A stretch of 64,000 bases of DNA from a phage. Under the pieces are notes generated by a model. That model searched no databases, was not told the DNA's origin, and saw only the letters and a program-made list of their open reading frames with translations. The stretch is taken from assembly GCA_019326865.1 (NCBI GenBank), contig GCA_019326865.1_4101.1. One strand, 5' to 3'. Made by a program: the position numbers and the translations under genes. Shown piece after piece: positions 28-19,404 of this stretch (positions are counted from its first letter, which is position 1; every line of letters starts with the position of its first letter).

Positions 28-303
28 ATGCACAGTGCGAATGAGTATATTCATTTTATGGATGGTAAATTCACATTCATTGATTACAGTTCATTACAAT
101 ATCCACATCAAGATATGCCGGACTATACAATAATGAATGAGGCTGAACTATTTCAAGCTTCATTAGTATTTGACAAGAAGTACATCTGTACATTTGAAGA
201 AGTAATTACTATACAAAATGAAATGAAGGAGTATGCATCTTTGAATAAACCCAATGAAGGTATTAATCAAGAATACAAATTCAATATAGAGATTCCAAAA
301 TGA
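28..303 (+). CDS. hypothetical small protein, FamA (acidic-aromatic FQ motif family)
   Basis: 91 aa ORF; C-terminal 'NEAELFQASLVFDKKYICTFEE' matches FamA motif. Confidence 0.55.
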   Translation: MHSANEYIHFMDGKFTFIDYSSLQYPHQDMPDYTIMNEAELFQASLVFDKKYICTFEEVITIQNEMKEYASLNKPNEGINQEYKFNIEIPK

Positions 304-659
304 CATATGATTATTCTATGTACTATTATAAGTTACCTAAAGGATGGGACTTGTGCTGTAATCTTATTAAGGGAGACTCGGAACATGAGTTGAATTTATA
401 TATGCACTACAAAGATTCTTGTTTTAAATTTATTCATGTATCACATGATGACTATGACTATGAATCTGAGAGTCTTATAGATTATACAGTACTGGACGAT
501 GGCGAACTATTTCAGGAAGCATTAGTGTTTGATAAGAATAAGTACTCCTGTACATTTGAAGAAATGGTTTCTTTGCAAACTGAAATGAAGAGATTTGAAA
601 AAGAAAACGTATTTAATCCATCCCCATCAAGAACGAATAATTATTATTTCAATATATGA
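300..659 (+). CDS. hypothetical protein, FamA
   Basis: 119 aa; 'LDDGELFQEALVFDKNKYSCTFEE'; ATGA overlap with upstream ORF. Confidence 0.6.
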   Translation: MTYDYSMYYYKLPKGWDLCCNLIKGDSEHELNLYMHYKDSCFKFIHVSHDDYDYESESLIDYTVLDDGELFQEALVFDKNKYSCTFEEMVSLQTEMKRFEKENVFNPSPSRTNNYYFNI

Positions 660-668
660 GATTATAAA

Positions 669-1151
669 ATGACATTACAGAGTTCATTGGAAAAAGCAAA
701 GAAGATTCATGAGTACATGAATATGGCAAAAGAAGGTTCAGTTTACGGTGTTTTCAAAGACACAAGTACTCAATATTATGTGCCGGATAACCTCCTTTAT
801 AATGACTACTCAGATACAGAAACGTGCGTACTGGATACCGACCCTAAAGATTATGAATGTTTCATTGATATGCATTATGAGTACATGGTCTATATTAATG
901 ATGCAGATATTACCATATACAGTACTGACTGCGATTCTGATGACATTATAATTCCTAGTGAAGTTCTGAATGGCCCGTGGGATAGTGAAGAGTATTACTT
1001 CCAACAAAGTACTGTATACAATGAAGAAGTACTTGATGTTATTATAATTATGTGGTACTTTAAAAATATTGGTTCTGATAACTTCTATTTCGATTACAGA
1101 TACGTAAAGAAAGCTATAGATAACGATATTAATAAACCACACGGGGGTTGA
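669..1151 (+). CDS. hypothetical protein, FamA
   Basis: 160 aa; N-term 'MTLQSSLEKAKKIHEY', C-term 'EEYYFQQSTVYNEEVLDVIIIMWYFK'. Confidence 0.7.
   Translation: MTLQSSLEKAKKIHEYMNMAKEGSVYGVFKDTSTQYYVPDNLLYNDYSDTETCVLDTDPKDYECFIDMHYEYMVYINDADITIYSTDCDSDDIIIPSEVLNGPWDSEEYYFQQSTVYNEEVLDVIIIMWYFKNIGSDNFYFDYRYVKKAIDNDINKPHGG
975..1071 (+). repeat. direct repeat copy A (FamA conserved C-terminal coding segment)
   Basis: about 90 percent identical to 2375-2471 by eye, including identical 26-mer 'ccgtgggatagtgaagagtattactt'. Confidence 0.7.
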
Positions 1152-1152
1152 A

Positions 1153-1623
1153 ATGAGTTTAGAAAGAGCATTAGAGATTGCGAAGTTAATTGATTTATGC
1201 AGCAAAGAAATTGTATCAAATTGTCTCAATGGATATCTATTCAAGGAAGGTAAATCATATTGTCGAATGAGATACGATGACAGTAGTGAGTATATTCACA
1301 TGTATGAAGAAGACCTTGATGATTCCGAAATAACACTGAATGGGTGTGATGTTAATCTGGAAGATAATTACATTTACTTCAGTCGTGGTGCTGATATTTT
1401 AATACAAGAAACATCAATTCAACATGTGAATCCAGATGTATATCTTCCATATTCAGTACTGGATAATGACTGGGGAAGTGAAGAGGTTTACTTTCAGCAT
1501 AATACTATCTACGATGAAGATGTGCTTGACAAGCTTGTCATTCTGTGGTACTTTAAGAACACTGATACTCCCAACTTCTATATGGATTTGGATCTACTAC
1601 GAGTTATAAAAGAGGATATATGA
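1153..1623 (+). CDS. hypothetical protein, FamA
   Basis: 156 aa; 'MSLERALEIAKLI' and 'EEVYFQHNTIYDEDVLDKLVILWYFK'. Confidence 0.7.
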   Translation: MSLERALEIAKLIDLCSKEIVSNCLNGYLFKEGKSYCRMRYDDSSEYIHMYEEDLDDSEITLNGCDVNLEDNYIYFSRGADILIQETSIQHVNPDVYLPYSVLDNDWGSEEVYFQHNTIYDEDVLDKLVILWYFKNTDTPNFYMDLDLLRVIKEDI

Positions 1624-2063
1624 GTTTAGCAAGTGCACTTAAACTGGCACACAAAATACATCACTTCCACGATAACATAAAAAGTGGGTTCAATGGTGAT
1701 AAAGTAAGTGCATTGGGTAATGAGTATTATCTATCAGGTATAAAGACATACTCTGATGATATTTTACTTATGGGACATGATAAAGACAATACTATACAGT
1801 ACTCTTCATGTAGTCAATATACTAGTTTTATGGTATATATTCCAGGTACTAAGATTACGTTTGACACATCAAATTCACCTGTTGACTTCGGGGTACTTGA
1901 TGGCCCGTGGGGTACTGAAGAGTATTACTTCCAACAGAGTCTTATTTTCAACCAAGAAATTCTTGATTCCTTGGTTGTTTTGTGGTACTTTAAGGAATTG
2001 AATTTTGAACCATTCTTTCTTGACTGGGGAGCATGTGAGTATTTAAGTACAGGGGATTTGTAA
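1620..2063 (+). CDS. hypothetical protein, FamA
   Basis: 147 aa; 'MSLASALKLAHKIH' and 'EEYYFQQSLIFNQEILDSLVVLWYFK'; ATGA overlap. Confidence 0.7.
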   Translation: MSLASALKLAHKIHHFHDNIKSGFNGDKVSALGNEYYLSGIKTYSDDILLMGHDKDNTIQYSSCSQYTSFMVYIPGTKITFDTSNSPVDFGVLDGPWGTEEYYFQQSLIFNQEILDSLVVLWYFKELNFEPFFLDWGACEYLSTGDL

Positions 2064-2551
2064 TGTCGTTACAAAGTGCATTAAAAGAAGCAAAGAAAAT
2101 CCATGAGTACATGATTATGGTACAAGAAGGTTCAGTCCCAGGTGTGTATAAAACATCTGATACTGAATTTTTTGTAAAAGACCGTGACGATTATGATGAG
2201 TCAGAGATATGTGCAGAAACGTTAGTACTGCACACTGATACTGGTGATAGTGATAACTGTGAATATCATATGTACAATCAATACATTAGTTATTGCCGTA
2301 ATGAAGATATTACCATCTACAACACAGATATTGATGCTGATGACACTATCATTCCGTATTCAGTACTGGAAGGTCCGTGGGATAGTGAAGAGTATTACTT
2401 TCAGAATAGTACTATCTACAATGAAGAAGAACTGGATGTTATTGTGATTATGTGGTACTTTAAAAGTATTGACTCCAGTAGTTTCTATTTTGATTATGAA
2501 TATGTAGAGAATACAGTAGGAGAAGGTAATGTCATTACAAAGTGCTCTTGA
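2063..2551 (+). CDS. hypothetical protein, FamA (close paralog of 669-1151)
   Basis: 162 aa; 'MSLQSALKEAKKIHEY', 'EEYYFQNSTIYNEEELDVIVIMWYFK'; about 90 percent nt identity to 975-1071. Confidence 0.7.
   Translation: MSLQSALKEAKKIHEYMIMVQEGSVPGVYKTSDTEFFVKDRDDYDESEICAETLVLHTDTGDSDNCEYHMYNQYISYCRNEDITIYNTDIDADDTIIPYSVLEGPWDSEEYYFQNSTIYNEEELDVIVIMWYFKSIDSSSFYFDYEYVENTVGEGNVITKCS
2375..2471 (+). repeat. direct repeat copy B
   Basis: paralogous to 975-1071; N-terminal segments 669-750 and 2063-2145 also similar. Confidence 0.7.
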
Positions 2552-2975
2552 AAAAGCAAAAGAACTACATGGATACTTTGAAGATATAAAGGCAGGAAAG
2601 TTCAAAGAAGTATACAAAGCCGAGAACGGTAACTACTACAAAGATGAAATATATAATAATTCCGTTGGTGTAAGGGTTATTCTTGGGTTGAATTCCAATA
2701 GTCCTGTGTCGTTTTCTGAATACAATAGAGATGCAGAATTCATTAGTTATGTTGAAAATGGTAGCATTCGTTTTATTAATAGACAAAAACCATTAATTTT
2801 GAATTATGAAGTTCTGGATGGTCAATGGGATAATGAAGAGTATTACTTCCAAAACAGTACTGTATACGACGATGAAGTACTTGAAGCATTAGTTATTATG
2901 TGGTACTTCAAGAGTATTAACTGTCCTCGATTTTATTTGGATTTCGAAGAACTTGGTAAAGATCCAGAGGTATAG
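2529..2975 (+). CDS. hypothetical protein, FamA
   Basis: 148 aa; 'MSLQSALEKAKELH', 'EEYYFQNSTVYDDEVLEALVIMWYFK'; GGAG RBS. Confidence 0.7.
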   Translation: MSLQSALEKAKELHGYFEDIKAGKFKEVYKAENGNYYKDEIYNNSVGVRVILGLNSNSPVSFSEYNRDAEFISYVENGSIRFINRQKPLILNYEVLDGQWDNEEYYFQNSTVYDDEVLEALVIMWYFKSINCPRFYLDFEELGKDPEV

Positions 2976-2976
2976 A

Positions 2977-3291
2977 ATGAAAAACTTATTCAGTGTTCAG
3001 TACGTTCCAGGTGAAATTAGTTTATTGTATCTCTTTGACCATGATAATTCATTATTACTAGTAGTAAAGAAATGTCAAGCTAGTTCGTTTGTTGAATACA
3101 TTCACGATAATGAATATATACCTGATTTTTTAGAGTGCGATTATTACGATGATCATGAATCATTTATTTTTCAGGAATCGCTAGTATGGGACAAATCGAT
3201 TAACTTCTTTACGTTAATTGAATTACAAAAGCAAGTGAAGTATCATTGGGATTATTTAATTACACAGGATTACATTGAGATAGAAATATAA
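2977..3291 (+). CDS. hypothetical protein, FamA-like
   Basis: ATG after GAGG (track ORF began at TTG 2953); 'HESFIFQESLVWDK'. Confidence 0.55.
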   Translation: MKNLFSVQYVPGEISLLYLFDHDNSLLLVVKKCQASSFVEYIHDNEYIPDFLECDYYDDHESFIFQESLVWDKSINFFTLIELQKQVKYHWDYLITQDYIEIEI

Positions 3292-3599
3292 TGACTAAAA
3301 ATGAATTTGATTCACTTTGTACTGTTTATAATTCATTAACAGAAATACCTAACTTTATTAGTTATATTTCAGCTTTAAATCACATTATGCATAGTTTTGA
3401 ACAATCGTTTGAGGAGAAATATGCTGGAAGAAAAGTTCTATGTCATATGCCAATGTACTTAGGAGATGGTGAGCCTTACACTACAAGTACTACATGTGAA
3501 ATAAAAAAATATAATATATTATTGGGTACTATAGAATTCACAGTATCCAATGGCGGTAGTTATATGTACTTTAGAGATGGAGTGGTTGAATTATTATGA
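3291..3599 (+). CDS. hypothetical protein
   Basis: 102 aa ORF, stop-start overlap with neighbours, no recognised motif. Confidence 0.45.
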   Translation: MTKNEFDSLCTVYNSLTEIPNFISYISALNHIMHSFEQSFEEKYAGRKVLCHMPMYLGDGEPYTTSTTCEIKKYNILLGTIEFTVSNGGSYMYFRDGVVELL

Positions 3600-4045
3600 G
3601 TTACGAAAGTGCAATCAAGAAAGCAAATGATATTCTACGCGTCGTTCAATTCTTCAAAGAAAATCCTGAATACGTAGATGATAAAAACCAAGAGCACGAT
3701 GAGAGATTGAGACGAAAAATTATCTCTTTATTTGACACTAATAAAGATAATTGGAGTCTAATTGAGTTAGCATACGATTATATTTCATTGAACCGAAATG
3801 ATGATGTAGTTAAGATAGAAAGGCATGAATCAGAAGAATCTTTTAAAATTTCAGATATTTTATCCCTGAGTACTGAAGAAGGGTACTTCCAGGGTAGCAC
3901 TCTTTATAATGAAGAAACACTTGACAATCTATGCACATTCAGTGTAATATATCAGAAATCTGTACTAGATATATTTTATCTTGACACTGCTGAACTGCAT
4001 ACCCTAACCAATTTTGTTACTACCGAAGAGGCTACATTCGAGTGA
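3596..4045 (+). CDS. hypothetical protein, FamA
   Basis: 149 aa; 'MSYESAIKKAN', 'EEGYFQGSTLYNEETLD'. Confidence 0.65.
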   Translation: MSYESAIKKANDILRVVQFFKENPEYVDDKNQEHDERLRRKIISLFDTNKDNWSLIELAYDYISLNRNDDVVKIERHESEESFKISDILSLSTEEGYFQGSTLYNEETLDNLCTFSVIYQKSVLDIFYLDTAELHTLTNFVTTEEATFE

Positions 4046-4578
4046 TGAAAGTTAACATTAATGACTTTGATGCATTACAAGATTTATCAAAAAAGATTCG
4101 CACCATCGTACCAGTACTTAAAAAATGCAGTACTGGTTTAATCGATCCTAGTTCTGTTGTCAATGAGAAGTACAATTTTCATCGTGTATTACAGGGGACA
4201 GGTGCATTTCAGAAGTGTGAGGTACGTGAGAAACATGTAATTGATACATCGTTGTTTTCTATTGGTGCACCTGTGTCAAACAATACTATTTTCCTGGATG
4301 CATCTGGAAATATTCAACAATTAACATTTAAGAAAAGGAAAAAGAATAATAACATTGGTGTGTACGCGATGAAGTGGGGACAGCCAGCGTTGATGCGTGA
4401 CATTCACATTCCTAAGTACAATTTCAATGCATTTGAAGAACAGTGTTTTCAACTTTCTTGTACTGACCCTGACTATGCTATCATTCAATTCTATATGGAA
4501 TTGCAGATTGCATTTAATAGTAATTTGTATATTAACTTATTGGCAATGAACATAGATGAAGTATTCAAAAACATTTAA
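4045..4578 (+). CDS. hypothetical protein, FamA-like
   Basis: ATG 4045 (track start 4042 is GTG); 'EEQCFQLSCTDPDY'. Confidence 0.55.
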   Translation: MKVNINDFDALQDLSKKIRTIVPVLKKCSTGLIDPSSVVNEKYNFHRVLQGTGAFQKCEVREKHVIDTSLFSIGAPVSNNTIFLDASGNIQQLTFKKRKKNNNIGVYAMKWGQPALMRDIHIPKYNFNAFEEQCFQLSCTDPDYAIIQFYMELQIAFNSNLYINLLAMNIDEVFKNI

Positions 4579-4774: not shown

Positions 4775-4943
4775 CATTGCTAAACTATTCAATATATATT
4801 CTACTAGAATGATGCAAACAGATTCATATAGTACTAAATTCAAAGAGTTGAAAGTACTGATGTACTTGGGAACACAATATCAGGAACAAGTTATTTTAGA
4901 ATATATTAATTCATTAAAGAAGGATATCCGTGATGTACGATGA
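4752..4943 (+). CDS. hypothetical small protein
   Basis: 63 aa ORF in co-directional gene train. Confidence 0.35.
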   Translation: MKIIDQNDIAKLFNIYSTRMMQTDSYSTKFKELKVLMYLGTQYQEQVILEYINSLKKDIRDVR

Positions 4944-5493
4944 TTTAGATCTTGCGTTTGAACGCATGAAAATTTTAATGCAATGCAATGAAATGCATGA
5001 GACAATCCGTCGCACCAAAGGGATTGAATATACAAGTAAACTATTCTCATACGAAAGTCGTCGAGGGATGGATCATTTTTACTGCACTGATTGTTCAAAG
5101 TTTTCAGTACTGAAATATTATCATCCTACTGTTTCCAATAATAGTTTAATATCCACATATGACGGTGATCTGTTTAGTGTAATGTATGACACATTACATC
5201 CATCAATTTCAATATATAAAGATTGCGATAGTAGTCTATCGTATATAATTGAAGATTACTTATCTCCTAATACTGAAGAGAATATATTTCAAAACAGTGT
5301 ATTGCATGATGAATTAAGTATAAAATGCATCTATATGTTCAATAAGTTAAAAGAATACGTTGATAATAATTACTTAATTGATGAGTTAGCTGTGTTTTCG
5401 GTTTCAGTTTTCAATACAAATGATGTTGATATGAAATACTATAATGAAATTTGTAAAGTACATAACATGTATAAGGAACTCTTATGCTACTAA
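4930..5493 (+). CDS. hypothetical protein, FamA-like
   Basis: 187 aa; 'TEENIFQNSVLHDE'. Confidence 0.55.
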   Translation: MMYDDLDLAFERMKILMQCNEMHETIRRTKGIEYTSKLFSYESRRGMDHFYCTDCSKFSVLKYYHPTVSNNSLISTYDGDLFSVMYDTLHPSISIYKDCDSSLSYIIEDYLSPNTEENIFQNSVLHDELSIKCIYMFNKLKEYVDNNYLIDELAVFSVSVFNTNDVDMKYYNEICKVHNMYKELLCY

Positions 5494-6086
5494 ATGCCAA
5501 TAAATGTTGTAGTGCAGATGTGCATTTGTTTTTTAAGAAATTGGCAAATGATATTATATATATGCAGGAAATGATTTACCACAAACGAACAGATTTAGAA
5601 AAAGCATTAGTACAGTTCTCCTTTATGCTTGATGGTGATATATTTCTACATGGTGATACATTGCGAACAGTACTGGACGGAAATTCAAATAGAAGTTTCA
5701 TTTGTACAAATAATAAATTTTCTTCCACGATGTGCCGTACTTTTTATAATCCTGATTCGGACTTATATCAAGTGTCGTATTCTAAAGGTGCAGTTGAATC
5801 ATCATATTGTGATAGTTCAGCTTTAGGTAAAAGTCGTCCATATATGCAATCATTTGAAATTGAACTCATCAGTACTGATGAAGATGCAATGTTCACAAAT
5901 GATATAACGATGGATCGTGAATCTGCAATGATATATATTACAAATTCTATGCATACATTCTTTCAACGATTAGAATTTGATAATGTATATATATCAAATG
6001 TAAATATTTTCAATGATCTGTGTCAGTACTTGAAAAGTGTTTGTGATTTTGATGAAAGCTATTGTAAGCTTTATACTGAGGTATAA
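5484..6086 (+). CDS. hypothetical protein
   Basis: 200 aa ORF, weak FamA resemblance. Confidence 0.5.
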   Translation: MLLNANKCCSADVHLFFKKLANDIIYMQEMIYHKRTDLEKALVQFSFMLDGDIFLHGDTLRTVLDGNSNRSFICTNNKFSSTMCRTFYNPDSDLYQVSYSKGAVESSYCDSSALGKSRPYMQSFEIELISTDEDAMFTNDITMDRESAMIYITNSMHTFFQRLEFDNVYISNVNIFNDLCQYLKSVCDFDESYCKLYTEV

Positions 6087-6091: not shown

Positions 6092-6454
6092 ATGAACACA
6101 TTAAGTATTACATACTATACAACTAAAAAATTAGTTACTTGTTTAATATCATTGAAGTCAAAAAATGATGATATGTTTGATATGGCTGCATATGAATTAG
6201 AATTATCAGAAGATGGTTTCAAGATCTATGAAGTATATAGCTATGTTCGTGAAGATGTAATTGACACTACACTAATGCAAGAGGATGAGTTATTCCAAGA
6301 AAGTTTAGTATGGGATAATAAGTACGATTGTAACTTTGATTTCTTATGTTTAATCCAAAAAGAAATGAAAAGAATCTTTGATAATTATCCAATCAAACGT
6401 TTCAGTACTGCACCTGAGCAATATAAAAGGATTATATTCACCTATGAAGATTGA
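6092..6454 (+). CDS. hypothetical protein, FamA
   Basis: 120 aa; 'QEDELFQESLVWDNKYDCNFD'. Confidence 0.6.
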   Translation: MNTLSITYYTTKKLVTCLISLKSKNDDMFDMAAYELELSEDGFKIYEVYSYVREDVIDTTLMQEDELFQESLVWDNKYDCNFDFLCLIQKEMKRIFDNYPIKRFSTAPEQYKRIIFTYED

Positions 6455-6821
6455 ATTTGAAGTTATTACATATAGTATAGGTGATGGTATCCGTTGCTAC
6501 GTACAAGCAAGGCATATTGTTCCTGATGATAAACTGTCACCCAAAAGTTTCCTTATTACACAAGAACTCTTAGATATTAACAGAGAGAACAAGTATACAT
6601 ATTATCTCACTAAGGGTTATTGTGGTTCGCGTGGTTTTAATATTGTAGCTGTTTCTAGAGATGAAATTGATGATTTAACTGAGTACGGTGAAGAAGAGAT
6701 GTTCCAGTACAGTACTGTTTTTAATGATCTGGATGTGTTTCTGTTACGAAAAATACAACACATTATGCAAGAATGTTTGCATCATAAGAGAGGTATTGTA
6801 TGCGACGTGAAATTGAATTAG
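6444..6821 (+). CDS. hypothetical protein, FamA
   Basis: internal ATG 6444 chosen over overlapping 6378; 'GEEEMFQYSTVFNDLD'. Confidence 0.55.
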   Translation: MKIEFEVITYSIGDGIRCYVQARHIVPDDKLSPKSFLITQELLDINRENKYTYYLTKGYCGSRGFNIVAVSRDEIDDLTEYGEEEMFQYSTVFNDLDVFLLRKIQHIMQECLHHKRGIVCDVKLN

Positions 6822-7141
6822 TTAAAGTAATGTACGCTACTCATATTAAACTACTACTTGTGAAATTTGATTATAATAAAAAACATAATGATTTCTATAC
6901 GTTGATTCGTGATGAAAATTCATTCTCCTTGCGATGCAACAATATACAGTGGACGATAAATGATTTTTCTTCACTTGACGAAGGTGAATTATTTCAAGAA
7001 TCATTAGTTCTTAATAGTAATATAAAAATTGATATAGAAGCTATTAAAAAATACCAGATTTTATTAAACAAAATTATGAATTGTTATCCATGTGAAATAG
7101 GCGGTAATATGCAGTTCAAATCAAAAATGTATGAATTATGA
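6800..7141 (+). CDS. hypothetical protein, FamA
   Basis: 113 aa; 'DEGELFQESLVLN'. Confidence 0.55.
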   Translation: MRREIELVKVMYATHIKLLLVKFDYNKKHNDFYTLIRDENSFSLRCNNIQWTINDFSSLDEGELFQESLVLNSNIKIDIEAIKKYQILLNKIMNCYPCEIGGNMQFKSKMYEL

Positions 7142-7148
7142 GGTTTAT

Positions 7149-7685
7149 ATGTTAGATGAAAAAATGAACGCTGGAACTCAATATAATCATCTTAAGTTGG
7201 ATACATTTGAATCAGCTATCAGTACTGCACAAGATATTATCGATATTATTAAGTACATTAAAGAAAATAAGTTAAAATGTGTGAAAACACCCGAACGTAC
7301 AATGTATAAAGATGACTGTATTCACGTATCTGTTGTTAATCCAAAAGATAAGGATGGTAATAGAGATTTCTATAATAACAGTGAGCAGTTCGAATGTGAA
7401 TATGATCCAGAATTCAGAGGCGGTTTCATGTGTTACAGTATGAAGGATACCTCACACATTGAGATACGTTCATCTAAAGGTGGCATACGTACATTAGAGT
7501 TCATTGATATAGTTTTAAATCAGGAATACTACTTTCAACTATCATTATTGTTTCCTGCATACGATTTAGGAGTTCTATTCATGTATAAGTACTTTTATGA
7601 GCACTTGAATGAAGACTTCTATCTGGACTTAGAAGATTACCAATTAGTTTGGGAAGAAATGGTAGAACTTCGCAACCACCCTTGA
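7149..7685 (+). CDS. hypothetical protein, FamA
   Basis: ATG 7149 after GAGG; 'NQEYYFQLSLLF...FYLDLEDY'. Confidence 0.6.
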   Translation: MLDEKMNAGTQYNHLKLDTFESAISTAQDIIDIIKYIKENKLKCVKTPERTMYKDDCIHVSVVNPKDKDGNRDFYNNSEQFECEYDPEFRGGFMCYSMKDTSHIEIRSSKGGIRTLEFIDIVLNQEYYFQLSLLFPAYDLGVLFMYKYFYEHLNEDFYLDLEDYQLVWEEMVELRNHP

Positions 7686-7711
7686 CACCCACCGATTCTT
7701 TGTGATATAAT
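7682..7711 (+). promoter_or_regulatory. sigma70-like promoter (TTGACA-18-TGATATAAT)
   Basis: -35 TTGACA 7682-7687; extended -10 TGATATAAT 7703-7711; 33 nt upstream of CDS 7745. Confidence 0.6.
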
Positions 7712-11548: not shown

Positions 11549-11577
11549 TTTACAAGAGCATTCAGGTGTGTTATACT
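11549..11577 (+). promoter_or_regulatory. T4-early-like promoter (TTTACA-17-TGTTATACT)
   Basis: between terminator 11516-11540 and CDS 11593. Confidence 0.45.
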
Positions 11578-11592: not shown

Positions 11593-12168
11593 TTGGAGGA
11601 ATCTATGAGTACTGAATTAATTAAAGAAGTTACCTTACTTCTGAAGCATTGTTTTAAGTTCATTCCTGATACTGGTTCACGCCAGTACATTAAAGTTAAT
11701 GAGAAATATAACATCAATATCCTTGTATCTGAAACTGCGAGCAGCTATGCTAACATTGAGTTGGATTCTGAAGAAAAATATACAGTATTACAAATCATAG
11801 CAGATGTACAACGTAAACAAGATTATCGTTCTTCATTTGACAACGATTATCTGTGTGTTTGCTCAAACTTCAGTGAGAATAAAATTGTGTATAAGAATTT
11901 ATACACACATGAAGTGATTGATACATATAATTATAAAATTTCATCTGATGAATACAATGTGCTAATGTTCAACGCAAACCTTTTGTATGATGCCAGTACT
12001 GTACGCTGTTTAGAGTTAGCATATAAAATTCCAAAGATCATGGAAAGAAAAGATTTGATTCACTTTAAAACTATTTTAAAATACAGTACAAAAGAATTAG
12101 AAGATTTAGTACAGGCTCTTAAGAATTTCATTAATGAACATGTACCTGTTAAATTAGAGGACTTATAA
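11593..12168 (+). CDS. hypothetical protein
   Basis: 191 aa; GGAGG RBS; promoter-like element upstream. Confidence 0.55.
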   Translation: MEESMSTELIKEVTLLLKHCFKFIPDTGSRQYIKVNEKYNINILVSETASSYANIELDSEEKYTVLQIIADVQRKQDYRSSFDNDYLCVCSNFSENKIVYKNLYTHEVIDTYNYKISSDEYNVLMFNANLLYDASTVRCLELAYKIPKIMERKDLIHFKTILKYSTKELEDLVQALKNFINEHVPVKLEDL

Positions 12169-12752
12169 TGCAAGTTGAACACATTCAAATTATGAAATTG
12201 ATGCATGACATTGCGGAACTATCTGATAAGTACGATATTACTGTTCATGAGCCTATTGGAAATTATCGACTTAAAATTGAAAACAAATCACCACATCGTT
12301 TTGGTTCTGTAACTCTTGAATATTATAAAGTTTACGGTTATGAAACGGCAAAAAAAGGTTTCTGGGATACTATGGCAATGTATATCCGTACATCAAGACG
12401 TAGAGAACAAATCGGTTCAATCACGCCACATATGATATTTGTCAATGCTGTACACAGTGATATTAATCGAATTGTTGAATCTAATTTTGGTGACGTTGAG
12501 AACGATACATATTTAGAAATTCCACCAGAACTAGATCAATGTGAAGACATTCGTGAAGCATACATTTTCCAGAGATCATTACTTGACAACTTCAATGAGT
12601 TTGAGTACTTGATGCTTTGCTATGAAACTGCAAAAGCTATTAAGACTGGTGAATTGGTAATGTATAATAATTTCATTAACTGCAAATCCGATACACTTAA
12701 AGAGTTACACACTGCCATAAAAAACATCAAGGATACATATGAACGCTTATAG
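12168..12752 (+). CDS. hypothetical protein, FamA-like
   Basis: 194 aa; 'REAYIFQRSLLDN'. Confidence 0.55.
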   Translation: MQVEHIQIMKLMHDIAELSDKYDITVHEPIGNYRLKIENKSPHRFGSVTLEYYKVYGYETAKKGFWDTMAMYIRTSRRREQIGSITPHMIFVNAVHSDINRIVESNFGDVENDTYLEIPPELDQCEDIREAYIFQRSLLDNFNEFEYLMLCYETAKAIKTGELVMYNNFINCKSDTLKELHTAIKNIKDTYERL

Positions 12753-13317
12753 TTACATGACAGAACGTCATCAGATATTATATGATATCAGTACTAAAAT
12801 GTTATCAATTGTTAGTAGTGCGAAAGAAATTGAAAAACAATACCTCATCCGTGATGTAGCAATTTCATCTAAATGTTGGTCCAATGAATATTACGATCAT
12901 GGTATTCTTACTATTTCTGGGGCTAGAAATATTTGTATTGTAAAAAATAAGAAAAAATGCAATGAAGAGTGTGAGATTAGAACCGATATACAAATTAAGG
13001 ATGATGGAAGTTTTTCACACCACCCATTCCATATTAGTACTGTTGGTGTTTTATATAATATTAAAGTACTATTCGGTGATGAAGAGTATGTGTTAAAAGC
13101 TATCAATCCAGAATCAAGTACAGTTGAAGAAGAACTGTTCCAGATGAGCACGGTTATACCTGAAGAGGTTCTTAGTACTGTTATTTTTTGTAGTTTAATT
13201 TATCATGAATACAAAAAGAACCAGTTCGATTTCCACATGTTAGGAACGTACATCTTCAATAATTTGAGCGTAGATCGTTTAAAAGCATTAAATTCAGCGA
13301 TGGATAAGGTTCTATAA
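12739..13317 (+). CDS. hypothetical protein, FamA
   Basis: 192 aa; 'VEEELFQMSTVIPEEVL'. Confidence 0.6.
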   Translation: MNAYSYMTERHQILYDISTKMLSIVSSAKEIEKQYLIRDVAISSKCWSNEYYDHGILTISGARNICIVKNKKKCNEECEIRTDIQIKDDGSFSHHPFHISTVGVLYNIKVLFGDEEYVLKAINPESSTVEEELFQMSTVIPEEVLSTVIFCSLIYHEYKKNQFDFHMLGTYIFNNLSVDRLKALNSAMDKVL

Positions 13318-13745
13318 TGACAAGAGATGATTGTTTGTACATATGGGATGTAGTTGAAAATACACTTTCAAATCCAGAAAATTATAAAACACAAAAAAGA
13401 CAGCGACACAAAACATGGATAGATTTGTTCGTTGAGGACATACATGCAGTGACTATTTGGGATTCACCGAGGGCATCAGCATCTACTCTATTGGACAATG
13501 AATGCATTGATTGCATTAATTCCACTTTTCATCTACACGGTTCTACAATTTTTGGTACATTTCTGGATATTGAAAATAAAGATGATATTGATTCACTTGC
13601 GTTACAATATCAAGTACTGTATAATACTAAATTAATTTACGATTTAGTACTAGCTTCTTATGTGTATAAATTAATGATGAAATATAATCACATTTCAGTA
13701 TCAGTTTATACCAAGGATATTCTTTCATTAAGAGACAAAACATGA
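13317..13745 (+). CDS. hypothetical protein
   Basis: 142 aa ORF, ATGA-type junctions. Confidence 0.5.
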   Translation: MTRDDCLYIWDVVENTLSNPENYKTQKRQRHKTWIDLFVEDIHAVTIWDSPRASASTLLDNECIDCINSTFHLHGSTIFGTFLDIENKDDIDSLALQYQVLYNTKLIYDLVLASYVYKLMMKYNHISVSVYTKDILSLRDKT

Positions 13746-14251
13746 GTTTATTAAATGCACGAGAATTAGTTGAGATGTATGAGATCTTATCTTCATATAA
13801 AAATTCCCCAAAAGATGTAATTCTCAACAAAAAGTTCCATGTCAATGTTGATCATATGAAAAATATAGATATGATTTCTTTAGTGGAAAGTAGTAAATCG
13901 GGTCTTGAGCGTGATATCATGCGTTTGATTTATATTACCAAACCATCATATACTAATGATAGTTCAATTAGTAATGAGACATTTTTGTACACTCCTTATA
14001 CTGATTGTACTTTAGTTTCAGTGTCTAATCAGAAACAAGATACTATCCAATTCATCAATACCAGTACTGATAACATTGAAGAAAATGAATTCCAAAACAA
14101 TACATTAAGTTCATGTAGTAGTGTTATAACCTTTATGTCATATCTGTGGTCAATAAAATCAAATGCAATTGTATATAGTTCTAATTACACACAAGATAGT
14201 ATTGTTGAATCATATAAAGCTCTGAAGGAATACTATGAAAATAACAAATGA
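13742..14251 (+). CDS. hypothetical protein, FamA-like
   Basis: 169 aa; 'MSLLNARELVEMYE', 'IEENEFQNNTLSS'. Confidence 0.55.
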   Translation: MSLLNARELVEMYEILSSYKNSPKDVILNKKFHVNVDHMKNIDMISLVESSKSGLERDIMRLIYITKPSYTNDSSISNETFLYTPYTDCTLVSVSNQKQDTIQFINTSTDNIEENEFQNNTLSSCSSVITFMSYLWSIKSNAIVYSSNYTQDSIVESYKALKEYYENNK

Positions 14252-14816
14252 TTTTTTTAAATGTTTAGTACACCCTATGCTGAGTGTTATGAAAAAATTA
14301 CAGAATCTACCGGAAGACAACGATTACAAGTTTAATCGTTTTGATTCAGATGTATTTTGTATTGAAATTGAAATGAATAATAATCGTAATTTGCATTTAA
14401 AATTCAAAGAATCGTCAAGTCCGTATTACAACTTTGATATGAATTTTAAAATAGATACTGACATTGAAGAAAACGTAATATCAAATCATACTAGCAAAAA
14501 TGGTTTTAAGCATAGAACTACTATGTACAATAATAAAAATAGTATTATATCTAAATGGTTTCACCAATTCACCAAAATTGGTGAAATTGAATATAGTGAT
14601 TTTGGTGAAGAGCAATACTTTCAGTTGAGTACAATTCATGAACTTCCACCATATGATTATGTTAAAACATGGTTTGATATTCATAATATAATTGATGATG
14701 CAATCAAACTTCCATTTGGGGTATCAATATCATATACTGCTCCTAAAACATTTGTTTTTACGGAAGATATGATTATGAAAAAGATATGGGCAATTATCCC
14801 ACTTATGATGGATTAA
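14235..14816 (+). CDS. hypothetical protein, FamA
   Basis: 193 aa; 'GEEQYFQLSTIHELPPYDY'; terminator downstream. Confidence 0.6.
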   Translation: MKITNDFFKCLVHPMLSVMKKLQNLPEDNDYKFNRFDSDVFCIEIEMNNNRNLHLKFKESSSPYYNFDMNFKIDTDIEENVISNHTSKNGFKHRTTMYNNKNSIISKWFHQFTKIGEIEYSDFGEEQYFQLSTIHELPPYDYVKTWFDIHNIIDDAIKLPFGVSISYTAPKTFVFTEDMIMKKIWAIIPLMMD

Positions 14817-14820: not shown

Positions 14821-14848
14821 ATACCAGGGGTTGACTCTGGTATTTTTG
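14821..14848 (+). terminator. rho-independent terminator
   Basis: ATACCAG...CTGGTAT stem, 9-nt loop, TTTT. Confidence 0.55.
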
Positions 14849-14877: not shown

Positions 14878-15429
14878 ATGAACTACAATCATGATCTTTT
14901 TACATTATGTGCATCAAAATGTGTTGATGGTTGGGCAGATAAAATCAATACCATAATTCATCGATATCTCGTCTTTAGTTCCCGTGCACGAAGTGAGGGG
15001 GCTATGGATTTCAAATATACACTATCTATTGATGGTGTAACTATCCATGCAGACGAAGAACGTCTGAGCATTAATTTGTATGATTCCTGTGTATTTGCTA
15101 TTCACCAAAAGATGGGGAAAGGATGGGGTTGTAATAACATTAACTCCAAAGCTATCTTTTGGGTTGGTCACCATCAGACAGTACTTGATCCTTCAATTAA
15201 ATCTAATCTTTTATCCGATAATATGGTTTATGATTTATTGTACTCCGAAGAACAACATTTTCAATTAAGTACATTGCATGATCTGGCACAGTACGAGGAT
15301 TGTTACAAAACATTAGAACTATGCCATTCCCTTGAACTCAAAGATAAATTGATACAAGTTTACCCTTCATTCTTTCATGAAGAAGTACAATGCACACTAG
15401 AACATATTTTATATGGGTACGACAAATGA
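14878..15429 (+). CDS. hypothetical protein, FamA
   Basis: 183 aa; AGGAG RBS; 'SEEQHFQLSTLHDLAQYED'. Confidence 0.6.
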   Translation: MNYNHDLFTLCASKCVDGWADKINTIIHRYLVFSSRARSEGAMDFKYTLSIDGVTIHADEERLSINLYDSCVFAIHQKMGKGWGCNNINSKAIFWVGHHQTVLDPSIKSNLLSDNMVYDLLYSEEQHFQLSTLHDLAQYEDCYKTLELCHSLELKDKLIQVYPSFFHEEVQCTLEHILYGYDK

Positions 15430-16028
15430 GAAAAAGTTATCAAAAAACTATTGACCTAATTAGAGAAGTTATTAAAGTGGCTCCTGGTGCGATAGCATTC
15501 AAGAAGTCCCTATATAAAAAGTATGGCTCCATGTCAAATATGTGTTGTCAAAAGAAACGTAGTAAATTCACTACGCAGTACTGGCATGATTCTATTATTC
15601 TTAGTAATGAACATCATCGTATTTTAACAATCGAATCAGTAGATAATCAATATGGTGAAGGAATGATTTGTGTACCTGATTATGATGAAATTAACTTCAA
15701 CTGCGGTGATTTTGAAACAACATTATTACTTCACGAGGGTTATCCAGAAGGTGATGTATTAGCTGAGTACAATCCAAAAACTAAAATTCTCAAAAGAGGA
15801 ATCCAGTTCACTATTAATAACAAAGATGATGTTGAAGCAGCACTAATGCAACTGAGTACAAGTGAACCTATTACTATTAGTGTAGAAGAGTTATGGGGAA
15901 TTATTTCAGTACTTAATGAGTGCTACAAAGTAAAATCATTACGTAATCACACCCTTATATTGCATACTAATATAGCACATATAAAATGTAAGCACATTCA
16001 AGAAATGGCGGTTCCAGATGGACTTTAA
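15426..16028 (+). CDS. hypothetical protein
   Basis: ATGA overlap start at 15426; weak motif 'AALMQLSTSEP'. Confidence 0.5.
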   Translation: MRKSYQKTIDLIREVIKVAPGAIAFKKSLYKKYGSMSNMCCQKKRSKFTTQYWHDSIILSNEHHRILTIESVDNQYGEGMICVPDYDEINFNCGDFETTLLLHEGYPEGDVLAEYNPKTKILKRGIQFTINNKDDVEAALMQLSTSEPITISVEELWGIISVLNECYKVKSLRNHTLILHTNIAHIKCKHIQEMAVPDGL

Positions 16029-16611
16029 AGAAATTGAAAGTAAATTAAAGTACTTCAAAGATATCAAACTTCTTTGGGAAAAGTATAAAATTGATTACAA
16101 ATTCAGTGATGATGAGACAATAAAATCCATTGATATTAATATCAAAATCAAGTTCAAGAATAATAATTATGGTGAAGTAAGCTTAAATCATACTGGTGTA
16201 TCACTCAGGGACTATGATGGTTCAACACTCGCATATTTCGACTTCATTCCAGAACCAGGTGAAACACTACTTAGTGAGATAAATTCCTATGATATGGAAA
16301 TATTCGGCGGGAATCCGTTACTGTTCCGACTGTCCGAAGAGTGGAGTGAAGAATACTACACTTACAAAGATGGTGTAGTACTTGACATTCATGGAGAAGT
16401 TGTGAATGACTTGGAAGAACGTTTGTTCCAAGAATTGTGTGTTTCAAATACTTCATATGCATACAATCATATCCTTGACATGTTTGATTTATATAGTAAA
16501 ATAGATGCTGAAATGAATGCACATGGTATTCATTACCTTACAATTAACGACTATGCACAACTCGAAACCGCTGTGACAGCATTGTCTAAAGTACTGAAAA
16601 TAGGAACGTAA
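16018..16611 (+). CDS. hypothetical protein, FamA-like
   Basis: 197 aa; 'EERLFQELCVSN'. Confidence 0.5.
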   Translation: MDFKEIESKLKYFKDIKLLWEKYKIDYKFSDDETIKSIDINIKIKFKNNNYGEVSLNHTGVSLRDYDGSTLAYFDFIPEPGETLLSEINSYDMEIFGGNPLLFRLSEEWSEEYYTYKDGVVLDIHGEVVNDLEERLFQELCVSNTSYAYNHILDMFDLYSKIDAEMNAHGIHYLTINDYAQLETAVTALSKVLKIGT

Positions 16612-16612: not shown

Positions 16613-17026
16613 ATGAAACTGTACCATGCGAGTACTGTAAAAATTGATAACTTTTATATCCCGTATGGTGGTCTACATATGGGAGGCAAACACAGTGCTT
16701 TGGAAGCTGCATTACGCAAGCTGAGAAGCCCACTGAACGTCGTAGACGCATGTACAGTATACTTGCATACCTTAGAAGTTGATGTTGATAACGTGCTTCT
16801 GTGTGAAGATTTAGGCAGTGATGATGAGTGGCGTTCACTTATTGAGAATTGCACTGTTCAAGGATATGATGCTGTTCAGTACAAAAATGATTACGAGCCA
16901 GACAATGTTCCTAGTTATATGATTTGGGATGCATCTAAAGTTCGTATAGTTGAAGTTGATGCTATGCATATGGATGATGCTGAAATGATTATCGAAGATT
17001 TTCTTGATGAATATGAAGGTGTATAA
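16613..17026 (+). CDS. hypothetical protein (locally GC-richer)
   Basis: 137 aa ORF; composition visibly GC-richer than neighbours. Confidence 0.5.
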   Translation: MKLYHASTVKIDNFYIPYGGLHMGGKHSALEAALRKLRSPLNVVDACTVYLHTLEVDVDNVLLCEDLGSDDEWRSLIENCTVQGYDAVQYKNDYEPDNVPSYMIWDASKVRIVEVDAMHMDDAEMIIEDFLDEYEGV

Positions 17027-17562
17027 TGTCTGACCCGATGGTAGCACTGGCACGTACTAAATTACTATTAAAGATTGGTGAGATATTCACAGATCTTCTG
17101 TGCAATAAAATTGATATTACCGATCTAGATATTAAGCAACCGTGGGAAGTGACTATGTTCTCGGCGTTCCACCGATTGTCATATAAAGGTGAAAGTGTTC
17201 TTGATTTTAACCCCAAAGCAAAATTCATAGATTATGCCGCGTTGTACCGAGCGTTGCACAAAAATAGTTATTCAGGTTGTATAACCAATAACTTTGAACG
17301 AATTCAAGTTCAAACAGCATCACATGAGTTCAATGATTTACTCTATCCAGAATTTAATCTAACTGAAGAATTACTATTTCAGTACTCGTTAATTCTTACA
17401 AATCTCGAAACGCTAGAGTACTACAAAGAGTTAGTAGATATTTTTATGAATACACGACTTTCAAAAGATATTGTGATATTCTGGTATACAGAGCATATTA
17501 CAGAGGAATTGCTTAATGAATTTCTTCTAAATATGACAGCTATAAAGGAGAAGTTATGTTAG
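17026..17562 (+). CDS. hypothetical protein, FamA
   Basis: 178 aa; 'TEELLFQYSLILTN'. Confidence 0.55.
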   Translation: MSDPMVALARTKLLLKIGEIFTDLLCNKIDITDLDIKQPWEVTMFSAFHRLSYKGESVLDFNPKAKFIDYAALYRALHKNSYSGCITNNFERIQVQTASHEFNDLLYPEFNLTEELLFQYSLILTNLETLEYYKELVDIFMNTRLSKDIVIFWYTEHITEELLNEFLLNMTAIKEKLC

Positions 17563-18029
17563 ATATTTTAGGAAACATCGATACTGCAAATTATTTTATC
17601 CAAGACGCACTATTTAATACACTACAAAAAGGTTTAGAAGTTCGTTACAACGTATATCAAGGTGATGGATATTTTGTTGATATTCTAGAAACACGTAAAA
17701 ATACATTTAATGTTAACATTACGACGTTTGGAAGACAGAACATTGCACGAATTTTAGTAAGTAAAGATGAAATAGTACTGAGATACAGTGCTAAGTTTAT
17801 GTTGACGTACAAGAAAAAAACAGACATGTTCAGTACTAATTTATTTGATGAACCATTTGACCTTGTAGATATTGAAGCTACTTTCTTTACTCAAAGTACT
17901 ATGGTAAAATACACTGATGTTCAATTTTCATCAGACGTTATGTCTGAAACATTACAAATGATCAAGGTATTATTTTATGCATTTGAGCAATTCAGAGAAG
18001 AAAGAAACAAGGTTAACAACCACAGATGA
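17556..18029 (+). CDS. hypothetical protein
   Basis: 157 aa; degenerate motif 'ATFFTQSTMV'. Confidence 0.5.
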   Translation: MLDILGNIDTANYFIQDALFNTLQKGLEVRYNVYQGDGYFVDILETRKNTFNVNITTFGRQNIARILVSKDEIVLRYSAKFMLTYKKKTDMFSTNLFDEPFDLVDIEATFFTQSTMVKYTDVQFSSDVMSETLQMIKVLFYAFEQFREERNKVNNHR

Positions 18030-18390
18030 ACTAATAGAGGCGATCACTAAGGAGTCAAAATACCACAAAGGGATTCGTCTATATTTTATAGATCTTGGTT
18101 CAATGGACGGCATATACATTTATGGTTCACAATCTTTATCTTATGATGTAATGCCAAAAAAATATGTAAAAATCTTTTTAGGGTCAAATAAGAAAACTTT
18201 CTTGACAATTAATGATAAAAACGTTATTATGAATTCTTTGGGTCATGATAAAGTGAAAATTGATCTAAACACGCTGGATGATATTGATTTTTTTCAATAC
18301 GAATGTTTAGGTGTTGACTTACATGGAATCAGTAGTGATATGATAAAATCATTAATCAAATATTTCGAAGGCGTTCATAAATGTATCTAA
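17977..18390 (+). CDS. hypothetical protein
   Basis: 137 aa; 'DIDFFQYECLG'; 53 nt overlap, start uncertain. Confidence 0.45.
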   Translation: MHLSNSEKKETRLTTTDELIEAITKESKYHKGIRLYFIDLGSMDGIYIYGSQSLSYDVMPKKYVKIFLGSNKKTFLTINDKNVIMNSLGHDKVKIDLNTLDDIDFFQYECLGVDLHGISSDMIKSLIKYFEGVHKCI

Positions 18391-18887
18391 CTAAATCGAT
18401 GAAAAATTCATTTGATAAAATCAAGAGTTGTCTTGATGGAGAGAATATTACAAGTGTTACACAATCTGCTGACCAAATTCAATGCAGTTCAAGTGATTGT
18501 ACTGTTATTTTGGGTTTACATAGTCTGCGTTTGTCAATAGTAAATAATATTGACAACACTGCTATTGTAATCACACCGTGCAATATTCAAAATGAGAATG
18601 GTGTATATCTTCATCACATGGGAACCGCATTTTATATTTTCAATACAAACAATACACTCGAAACAATCGTTAAGGAATATAATACACTTAACATTGATCC
18701 TGGTGAGTTATTTCAGATGAGTACGTTGTATTCATGTGATTTTACTGATACCTCACGTATTTTACCATTTTTCTTGGAAATTTTAAAGAAAATGGATAAT
18801 TTAAATCGTCAATACAATAAAAAAATGGTTCCAGAAGCTATATTAAATATTACTGATGCTATGGAAAAATATAAAGCAGTGCCTTAA
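18381..18887 (+). CDS. hypothetical protein, FamA
   Basis: 168 aa; 'DPGELFQMSTLYS'. Confidence 0.55.
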   Translation: MYLTKSMKNSFDKIKSCLDGENITSVTQSADQIQCSSSDCTVILGLHSLRLSIVNNIDNTAIVITPCNIQNENGVYLHHMGTAFYIFNTNNTLETIVKEYNTLNIDPGELFQMSTLYSCDFTDTSRILPFFLEILKKMDNLNRQYNKKMVPEAILNITDAMEKYKAVP

Positions 18888-18930
18888 TAAAAAACGCACA
18901 TGGAGTGCATATGAAGATCAAGGATAGATC

Positions 18931-19404
18931 ATGGAGATTAAAACTGTTGAAAATGGGAAAATTGATGACATTTTAGACTTGGACGCATTCAAAGTTCATG
19001 ATATAATGTTTAATGTGAAGGACATTATTCAATGTCTGTTTTTATGCAGCAAGACTATGCATGATTTTTTTCACAACCCGAATACTAATGTTTTTATACT
19101 TACAATCAGTACTGAAAACTCGTTTATCATGGGTATGCCCATGAGTACAAATGAACAGTATATTGATTGTGTTATTCGCAATAATGATTGTATTACCCCA
19201 CAATCTGAAGTTCGCAAAAAGAAAAACACTTACACAATCAAAGATGATAAAATCATGATGTGTTGCAGTAAAGGATTTATATTGGACAATTTCATCGTCA
19301 AAGATAGTTATCATGACTTTAAAATTTCCGAAAATCAATCCAATGTAGTTCTTTATGCTAGTGATATCGAAAGTTTAACAGTCAAAGATCCTAGTTTGGA
19401 GTAA
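18931..19404 (+). CDS. hypothetical protein
   Basis: 157 aa ORF. Confidence 0.5.
   Translation: MEIKTVENGKIDDILDLDAFKVHDIMFNVKDIIQCLFLCSKTMHDFFHNPNTNVFILTISTENSFIMGMPMSTNEQYIDCVIRNNDCITPQSEVRKKKNTYTIKDDKIMMCCSKGFILDNFIVKDSYHDFKISENQSNVVLYASDIESLTVKDPSLE

Follow-up and report, generated by a model that had tools for sequence, protein, structure and literature searches.

A large tandem family of FQ-motif paralogues in an Asteriusvirus-type jumbo phage

Large viruses are known to carry lineage-specific multigene families. In African swine fever virus (ASFV; MGF360/505) and in the poxviruses (host-range families), diverged paralogues stand by the dozens near a genome end, beside the terminal repeats; they are expressed early, vary in copy number and allele between isolates, and play roles in host range and immune evasion. 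The SUKH (SMI1-KNR4) proteins are small alpha+beta cytoplasmic immunity proteins, encoded in tandem paralogous arrays, that have also been taken up by viruses. Here, we analyzed a stretch of 64,000 nucleotides of phage DNA (GenBank assembly GCA_019326865.1, contig GCA_019326865.1_4101.1; referred to as the window), the first 19 kb of which are the distal two-thirds of a ~30-kb co-directional array near one genome end. The array holds the FQ family, a very large set of paralogous genes whose products share a motif with a Phe-Gln (FQ) dyad.

Among phages, a survey of jumbo genomes described ~35 zinc ribbon copies in Bacillus phage G and called them "unprecedented" (Iyer et al. 2021, PMC7824862). 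The two cases are alike in that a small domain is hugely expanded in one jumbo phage genome and its function only guessed. Unlike the zinc ribbons, the FQ proteins are of predicted alpha+beta fold, lack a metal-binding cysteine pattern, and reach at least 44 copies; moreover, the phage G expansion concerns one phage, whereas that of the FQ family is common to a whole clade across host genera. For RaK2, ~10% of the gene products have been reported to be paralogues (PMC3622015); this figure probably covers some of the present genes, for which no family, motif, structure, distribution, or function was described. No paper was found in the literature that defines the FQ family, its expression timing, or an anti-defence role. 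The family is new as a defined entity, while the phenomenon itself is known.

A paralogous family with an invariant FQ dyad

An earlier note, made from the letters and open reading frames (ORFs) of the window, had proposed about 36 paralogous genes with a common FQ motif. The pattern [ED][ED]x[FYLMIHC]FQ occurs 22 times in the three plus-strand frames of the window and not once in the three minus-strand frames. A hidden Markov model built from the five ORFs closest in sequence, and then iterated within the window at a cutoff of E < 1e-3, converged on 28 genes, and in a MAFFT alignment the F and the Q share the same two columns in all 28, which bears out the claim that the motif is positionally homologous across ORFs. 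An enlarged profile, composed of the window members and their relatives from 121Q, ph0011, A4, and a Klebsiella phage, recruited 30 window genes at E < 1e-4, followed by 13742 (1.2e-4) and 12168 (7.7e-4; genes are cited by their start coordinates), and no minus-strand ORF from a pool of 804 ORFs. Comparison by hhalign backed 12168 and 17977 (E 1e-4) as well as 13742 (6e-4), and weakly backed 11593, 13317, and 15390, the alignment always falling on the motif columns, whereas 5484, 9903, and 17556 gained no support from hhalign or the profile. The 42 plus-strand ORFs at 28-19404 thus comprise 31 supported members, these six degenerate or uncertain ones, each with an altered motif at the expected place (Table 1), and five unrelated genes (3291, 4556, 4752, 16613, and 18931). 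The count of about 36 is acceptable because it lies close to the 31 supported members plus the six with a degenerate motif, and the observation of one very large paralogous FQ-motif family is confirmed.

Two types of protein can be distinguished, a long type of 150-230 amino acids (aa) with an N-terminal helix and a short type of 90-140 aa without it. The helix signature MSLxSALxxAKxI, which had been ascribed to many members, is real, but it is restricted to the long type. Similarly, the proposed WYFK signature is found in the five closest paralogues only, while the F-[YF]-x-D strand that follows it is more widespread. Among three looser members suggested beyond the array, 29973 and 30548 belong to the family, but 21592 obtained weak support only (hhalign E 0.02). 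In an alignment of 115 sequences from E. coli and Klebsiella phages, F113 and Q114 are invariant even though pairwise identity within the family is only 10-25%. Position 108 is S or T in 70% of the sequences, E109 is kept in 88 of 115 (77%), E110 in 85 (74%), and S116 in 97 (84%), and position 118 is aliphatic in 95%.

The genes are tightly packed, as the earlier note had stated: 33 of the 42 gene junctions below 20 kb overlap (seven by 4 nt and five by 1 nt), and in the first 20 kb neighbouring genes stand more than 40 nt apart at only five places. Across the window, 127 of the 129 called genes lie on the plus strand.

By megablast, the first 20 kb of the window matched 34 phage records, all from E. 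coli or Salmonella jumbo phages of 310-386 kb, and the five of these records that were inspected are Asteriusvirus by classification or fall within that group. The best nucleotide match is UE-S1 (97.1% identity over the full length), followed at ~92-93% by phAPEC6, G17, Sharanji, 121Q, and PBECO4. The nucleotide matches identify the source as an Asteriusvirus, a 121Q/PBECO4/UE-S1-type jumbo coliphage of the RaK2-related group, and not a T4-like phage as had been assumed, because they are all to genomes of the Asteriusvirus type.

In these phages the array extends ~10 kb upstream of the window, where 121Q has 13 more members; the 121Q orthologue of the truncated ORF 28-303 begins 54 nt upstream of window position 1. 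In total, 121Q carries at least 44 FQ members in one 46-kb locus of a genome with 618 annotated features (~7% of its genes). The enlarged profile found 41 copies in ph0011, 42 in A4, and 30 at the locus of a Klebsiella RaK2-like phage, and two overlapping RaK2 loci hold 20 and 14 members. A metagenomic viral contig of 109 kb has 24 members within 20 kb. At the Klebsiella, RaK2, and metagenomic loci all members are co-directional and nearly all bear [ST]EExxFQxS[TL], the exception being three weak-scoring ORFs of the metagenomic contig that lack the FQ dyad. Word-indexed protein searches with family profiles recovered close orthologues only. An exhaustive hmmsearch of 1.84 billion representative proteins retrieved no more than 92 clusters at E <= 1e-3, all of 65-194 aa; the motif was seen in 21 of 21 inspected sequences, and tracing the origin of 10 clusters led in each case to a phage contig of ~350 kb or to a metagenome contig. 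A scan of IMG/VR with the peptide pattern EExYFQxS[TL] yielded just 122 matching stretches. On this sequence evidence, the family is confined to jumbo phages of the RaK2/121Q type.

Searches of known families were empty. No Pfam family was matched by 30 members at E <= 0.01, no NCBIfam family by any member, and no PADLOC-DB (anti-phage defence) profile by 28 members, while a PDB profile search gave nothing below E 0.5, so that the family is indeed an unrecognized one. PHROGs spreads the same proteins over at least 21 unrelated-looking groups, all of unknown function (9317, 12674, 13866, 34017, 15629, 34600, and 15 others), whereas the FQ motif and the present profile unite them. This fragmentation arises because plain BLASTP connects the window members as 8+3+2 only. 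The label "Phi92_gp213" on a family member of ph0011 had no counterpart in phi92 by tblastn. The products are soluble and mostly acidic, with a median isoelectric point (pI) of 4.7, a median net charge of -11, and no hydrophobic stretch of 15 residues or more. DNA-mimic anti-restriction proteins (Ocr, ArdA) were rejected as relatives, since there is no Pfam or PDB match and general acidity is the only feature shared.

Small, diverged cytoplasmic paralogues of 100-200 aa arranged in tandem are a typical feature of immunity clusters (SUKH/Imm), the model here being the tandem immunity paralogues of bacterial polymorphic-toxin loci. The FQ proteins resemble SUKH/SMI1-KNR4 in being small alpha+beta cytoplasmic proteins in tandem paralogous arrays, and their acidic, soluble character would also suit an immunity-type array that neutralizes toxins, whether effectors of abortive infection or toxin-antitoxin systems, bacteriocins, or the effectors of competing phages. 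Membership of SUKH/SMI1-KNR4 itself was rejected, given the empty Pfam search and the lack of a structural match, and we consider a toxin-neutralizing role quite unlikely.

Predicted fold and evolution of the family

Two members, one of the long type (2063-2551) and one of the short type (6092-6454), were modelled by AlphaFold2 run on the paralogue alignment. The long-type model consists of a helix at residues 3-21, seven strands, a short helix, the FQ helix at 109-115, a helix at 121-135, a strand at 141-144, and a helix at 145-153, whereas in the short-type model five strands lead to the FQ helix, after which come a second helix and a C-terminal strand. The predicted order of elements is therefore the same in both, namely an antiparallel sheet followed by the FQ helix, the second helix, and the C-terminal strand. 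The motif lies about two-thirds along the protein, in the blocks of highest confidence (predicted local distance difference test [pLDDT] 96-98 in both models). Foldseek retrieves other clade members with the model, and the structural matches in BFVD are to proteins of RaK2, GAP32, Serratia BF, Yersinia fHe-Yen9, and 121Q only. The general architecture of the predicted fold, an antiparallel sheet with helices packed on one face, is also that of MAM33/p32, and p32 is likewise very acidic.

Across the 115 sequences, the sole polar feature kept by all copies is hydrophobic-[ST]-E-E-x-hydrophobic-F-Q-x-S-[TL]-[VIL]. The other conserved positions belong to the hydrophobic core (I13, Y74, I75, Y77, L124, I127, F133, F141, Y142, and L145), and the remaining columns are variable (3.5-4 bits of entropy), the sheet region also having large indels. 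On the basis of the models, the motif may form a helix with an N-cap and with its F inserted into the core; along with some twelve hydrophobic positions, it would be the keystone of a fold without a close solved relative. Nearly the whole surface, the sheet region above all, would then be free to vary in sequence and length.

The same models bear on the suggestion of the earlier note that the motif resembles a protease recognition site and that the phage encodes three peptidase-fold proteins. On a related view, the products could be internal proteins that are carried in the virion or ejected from it, with possible maturation by a phage protease at FQ. The motif is loosely like a tobacco etch virus (TEV)-type site, and one FQ member, JP4_97, is present in the JP4 virion proteome. 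However, JP4_97 was identified there by one peptide and one peptide-spectrum match (3% coverage), ~275-fold below the major capsid protein, and is listed with clearly non-structural proteins (PhoH/PIN), while the other FQ proteins are absent among the 49 listed; no gp42x-46x protein is named in the main text of the phAPEC6 virion study. A TEV/NIa-type site was rejected, as ExxYxQ[GS] fits only 3 of 115 members, the residue after Q (P1') is Y, L, E, M, N, or Q in most (chiefly Y, L, or E), and the segment is predicted to be helical (pLDDT above 95) rather than extended. No peptidase was found among the ten largest window proteins, the only ones scanned. The proposed cleavage site is thus not borne out, and a virion-borne role, largely refuted, is very improbable. 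A beta-clamp-binding motif (QL[SD]LF or QLxLxL) starting at the invariant Q was rejected as well, fitting 3 of 115 members only.

Compared with A4, family members have a median identity of 37% and neighbouring non-family genes one of 81% (p = 0.003), while gene order is kept. The median ratio of nonsynonymous to synonymous substitution rates (dN/dS, omega) was 0.23 for the family and 0.17 for its neighbours against 121Q, 0.18 and 0.15 against ph0011, and 0.33 and 0.09 against A4; by region, it was 0.15 in the motif and 0.27 in the sheet region. Omega did not exceed 1 in any family gene with measurable dS or in any region. The orthologues are therefore under purifying selection and yet diverge several times faster than their neighbours, and the term "diversifying" in the earlier note does not hold in the dN/dS sense (0.15-0.27 by region and below 1 per gene). 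An ongoing sequence-level arms race is not demonstrated, because no region exceeds an omega of 1.

These values also address the view that the array consists of functionless or selfish duplications, drifting ORFs without a role for the phage. In favour of this view, nothing links the family to a known activity, and several array ORFs have lost the FQ dyad. Against this stand omega values of 0.15-0.33 throughout, intact reading frames, a gene order retained across Asteriusvirus and partly into the Klebsiella phage, and the invariance of F and Q in spite of the low pairwise identity. Purifying selection already contradicts such an origin, which we hold to be extremely unlikely.

Alleles have been exchanged between phages, as is evident from gene 9425 (65% identity to 121Q versus 92% to ph0011), gene 12168 (61% versus 94%), and gene 7745 (85% versus 53%). 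Between 121Q and the Klebsiella RaK2-like phage, reciprocal best hits keep the same order over the distal third of the array, and the expansion therefore predates the split of the two genera. "Hyperplastic", the word used at first for the array, is accordingly too strong, and an equation with the "hyperplastic region" genes of T4-like phages was rejected: these are Asteriusvirus genomes, which have conserved the order of the genes as well as their number (41-44). The comparisons show an ancient, syntenic array that diverges fast and undergoes some turnover. Salmonella phage SD-2_S15 was considered as a natural deletion series and discarded, as its genes are fragmented locus-wide regardless of family, which points to assembly or sequencing quality and not to biology. 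The SD-2_S15 record is 30 kb shorter than its relatives.

Expression signals and possible function

Within the first 20 kb, a promoter-like site at 7682-7711 and intrinsic-terminator-like hairpins fall in gaps of more than 40 nt, and the hairpin at 11515-11535 is followed by a further promoter-like site (Table 1). With 11 copies in the window, the extended -10 signature TGATATAAT exceeds the expected number of 3.8; all copies but one are on the coding strand, most are intergenic, and the signature is probably the early promoter class of this phage. In phage fEgEco12, whose termini were verified by restriction mapping, the terminal repeat measures 20,993 bp (PMC13070987). The map of that genome runs from the left terminal repeat through 27 tandem 70-aa genes to the first FQ gene at 27,270, ~6 kb past the repeat, and no FQ gene lies inside the repeat itself. 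Early transcription of the array by the host polymerase is likely, a conclusion drawn from the sigma-70-type promoters and the position just inside the left terminal repeat; the early gene block of the earlier note is hence plausible.

We propose that the FQ products may be early cytoplasmic binders or inhibitors of host proteins on one scaffold, serving takeover or counter-defence, and we offer this tentatively, as a reading that is quite possible but short of probable. The paralogues, at least 44 in number and long diverged from one another, are versions of one small (90-230 aa), soluble protein of predicted alpha+beta fold that is acidic in most cases. Their genes would lie in a few long operons, each bounded by putative sigma-70-type extended -10 promoters and intrinsic terminators and probably transcribed by host RNA polymerase shortly after the DNA has entered the cell. 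Each product would combine the shared scaffold with a variable surface and have its own host target. Such an organization would parallel that of the terminal multigene host-range families in large eukaryotic DNA viruses; with ASFV and the poxviruses the likeness is in organization only, with no relationship in sequence or fold. A set of binders appears the most economical reading because it accommodates purifying selection, hypervariable surfaces on a fixed scaffold, early-type signals, and the position inside the terminal repeat. An anti-defence function is a reasonable guess.

Several points weigh against a set of binders. No experiment or homology ties any member to a host target or defence system, and no region has had an omega above 1 in recent evolution. 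The early timing is deduced from promoter type and map position. In addition, the burial of F and Q is deduced from helical periodicity and pLDDT alone, and the invariant polar cluster of E, E, Q, and S could be a shared functional site instead of a structural keystone.

Such a functional site would fit adaptors with a common hook, in which the invariant polar patch docks one shared partner, either a host hub (RNA polymerase or a protease) or a phage enzyme, and the variable surface of each paralogue recruits a differing substrate or target. In favour of adaptors, the motif is the only conserved polar feature of the family, and helical periodicity would place E110, Q114, and position 118 on one face of the helix and F113 on another. 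The strongly conserved single-copy gene 16613-17026 lies inside the array (91% identity in A4, against 37% for the family) and shares contigs with FQ genes in distant relatives, the GAP32 lineage included. On the other hand, the high pLDDT of the motif region fits a capped helix with a core aromatic equally well; sequence searches of Pfam and the PDB gave no match for the product of the embedded gene, and its label "putative ADP-ribosyl transferase" comes from a single GenBank record, that of ph0011. Taken together, adaptors of this kind seem unlikely. More specifically, the E-E...F-Q.S patch might be a dock that joins ~45 target-recognition surfaces to one shared effector or hub early in infection, the hub being the product of the embedded gene or else a host protease or RNA polymerase. 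We rate this proposal as a long shot; what makes it notable is the presence, throughout the clade, of a strongly conserved single-copy gene within the array. If true, a single activity would be redirected to dozens of host targets by a modular, germline-encoded targeting repertoire built on a fold not seen before.

Feature map, neighbouring genes, and significance

The coordinates of the family members and of the expression signals are collected in Table 1.

Table 1. Members of the FQ family and candidate expression signals in the window
Feature	Coordinates	Strand	Evidence and remarks
FQ family, short type	28..303	+	E 6.9e-16; motif ELFQASLV; 5' end cut by window edge
FQ family, short type	300..659	+	E 5.7e-15; motif ELFQEALV
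FQ family, long type	669..1151	+	E 1.1e-25; motif SEEYYFQQSTV
FQ family, long type	1153..1623	+	E 2.9e-22; motif SEEVYFQHNTI
FQ family, long type	1620..2063	+	E 1.9e-26; motif TEEYYFQQSLI
FQ family, long type, modelled	2063..2551	+	E 2.4e-27; AlphaFold pLDDT 87, predicted template modelling score (pTM) 0.81
FQ family, long type	2529..2975	+	E 1.3e-25; motif NEEYYFQNSTV
FQ family, short type	2953..3291	+	E 1.1e-14 (window profile), 2.3e-6 (enlarged); motif ESFIFQESLV; true start probably the ATG at 2977
FQ family, long type	3596..4045	+	E 2.7e-19; motif TEEGYFQGSTL
FQ family, divergent, basic (pI 8.6)	4042..4578	+	E 1.4e-15 (enlarged profile); motif EEQCFQLSCT
FQ family, long type	4930..5493	+	E 9.1e-16; motif TEENIFQNSVL
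Possible degenerate member, FQ to FT	5484..6086	+	by eye (STDEDAMFTNDI); without profile support
FQ family, short type, modelled	6092..6454	+	E 8.2e-13; AlphaFold pLDDT 81, pTM 0.75
FQ family	6378..6821	+	E 2.6e-12; motif GEEEMFQYSTV; true start probably downstream, near 6450
FQ family, short type	6800..7141	+	E 7.2e-10; motif DEGELFQESLV
FQ family, long type	7131..7685	+	E 2.7e-24; motif NQEYYFQLSLL
Promoter-like TTGACA-18-TATAAT with TG	7682..7711	+	12/12 consensus; 59-nt gap; carries TGATATAAT
FQ family, long type	7745..8221	+	E 1.7e-22
FQ family, long type	8218..8721	+	E 2e-26; motif SEEMYFQESLI
FQ family, short type	8678..9040	+	E 4.4e-14; motif SEEELFQESTI
FQ family, short type	9024..9437	+	E 2.6e-14; motif TPDELFQYSLV
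FQ family, long type, basic (pI 9.1)	9425..9919	+	E 1.6e-22
Possible degenerate member, FQ to FS	9903..10445	+	by eye; without profile support
FQ family, long type	10442..11005	+	E 3.6e-20; motif LESVMFQLSLI
FQ family, long type	10998..11516	+	E 1.4e-12; motif TDEAIFQLSTI
Intrinsic-terminator-like hairpin and T run	11515..11535	+	9-bp stem; in gap >40 nt
Promoter-like TTTACA-17-TATACT with TG	11549..11577	+	10/12 consensus
Probable degenerate member, FQ to FN	11593..12168	+	hhalign E 0.013 on motif columns
FQ family, divergent	12168..12752	+	E 7.7e-4; hhalign E 1e-4; motif EAYIFQRSLL
FQ family, long type	12739..13317	+	E 8e-16; motif VEEELFQMSTV
Probable degenerate member, FQ to LQ	13317..13745	+	hhalign E 0.007 on motif columns
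FQ family, divergent	13742..14251	+	E 1.2e-4; hhalign E 6e-4; motif IEENEFQNNTL
FQ family, long type	14235..14816	+	E 6.9e-12; motif GEEQYFQLSTI
Intrinsic-terminator-like hairpin and T run	14821..14843	+	9-bp stem
Candidate promoter TTGACT...TGATACATT	3' of terminator 14821..14843	+	by eye
FQ family, long type	14878..15429	+	E 6.7e-10; motif SEEQHFQLSTL
Probable degenerate member, FQ to MQ	15390..16028	+	hhalign E 0.006 on motif columns; motif VEAALMQLSTS
FQ family, long type	16018..16611	+	E 1e-10; motif LEERLFQELCV
FQ family, long type	17026..17562	+	E 2.9e-11; motif TEELLFQYSLI
Possible degenerate member, FFTQST	17556..18029	+	by eye; without profile support
FQ family, divergent short type	17977..18390	+	hhalign E 1e-4; motif DDIDFFQYECL
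FQ family, long type; last member of contiguous array	18381..18887	+	E 2.5e-11; motif DPGELFQMSTL
Terminator-like hairpin, downstream of array	19516..19536	+	8-bp stem
Weak candidate, N-terminal FQ-like segment, 284 aa	21592..22446	+	hhalign E 0.023, motif columns only; PDELMFQLML
FQ family, outlying member	29973..30551	+	E 2.8e-11; motif GLPEHFQISTL
FQ family, outlying member, 229 aa	30548..31237	+	E 5.2e-16 (enlarged profile); motif SEEEHFQL
TGATATAAT sites	7703, 18999, 20756, 22464, 24440, 26389, 28546, 36319, 44041, 55406	+	signature search

The embedded gene 16613-17026 encodes 137 aa, has an omega of ~0.1, and is homologous to GAP32_055. A second multigene family, of ~70-85-aa proteins with the motif LGT(N/D/Q)(Y/F/H)QE, accounts for the 27 tandem genes that separate the first FQ gene of fEgEco12 from the terminal repeat (21091-27280). 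It also occurs in the 121Q locus at 1-4900 and, within the FQ array of the window, at 4556-4774 (E 2.6e-6) and 4752-4943 (E 6.9e-13). Homology of the FQ family to these LGTNYQE proteins was rejected (hhalign E 0.21). The fEgEco12 terminal repeat (1-20993) itself contains ~56 small genes, among them genes annotated as spackle, DksA-like, and GNAT, with most gaps at ~50-300 nt, unlike the packed arrays that follow. In phage A4, the FQ member at 11527-12063 is annotated as "DNA ligase" in the record, probably a mis-annotation, and a 1.4-kb gene annotated as "methyl-accepting chemotaxis protein" (25594-27006), absent from the window, is inserted in the array.

Downstream of the array, the non-coding gap 22447-22769 (323 nt) holds a TGATATAAT promoter, directly followed by a strong hairpin with a T run and then by ~260 nt free of ORFs. 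It had no Rfam or tRNA match and a fold z-score of -1.8, and could be a small RNA or leader; tRNA and Rfam scans of the whole window gave no match. Four adjacent genes of 91-103 aa (25947, 26476, 26798, and 27072; 25947-27356) form a BLASTP-linked paralogue group that diverges fast between phages (54-64% identity to ph0011). Also downstream of the array, at 31499-34670 and 40988-42406, are a T4 Rnl1-type RNA ligase with a polynucleotide kinase/phosphatase (an RNA-repair pair) and an ATP-dependent DNA ligase, with PhoH/PIN, WGR, and NrdD proteins farther along. The sole long minus-strand gene (47152-49824) encodes 890 aa with nine Big_2 Ig-like repeats.

With ~7% of the genes and ~8% of the DNA of such a jumbo phage, the FQ family is the largest phage paralogous expansion that we found in the literature, the published comparison being the ~35 copies of phage G. 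The family can now be recognized by a diagnostic motif and a profile, its distribution is defined, and two of its members have confident structural models. The RaK2/121Q group of jumbo phages is under development for therapy, and more than 80% of the genes of these phages are unannotated. Because the genes lie in few operons, the array could be deleted block by block, which makes the question of early jumbo-phage "dark matter" testable. If the products are host-protein binders, the array would constitute a ready library of inhibitors of E. coli and Klebsiella functions or defences.

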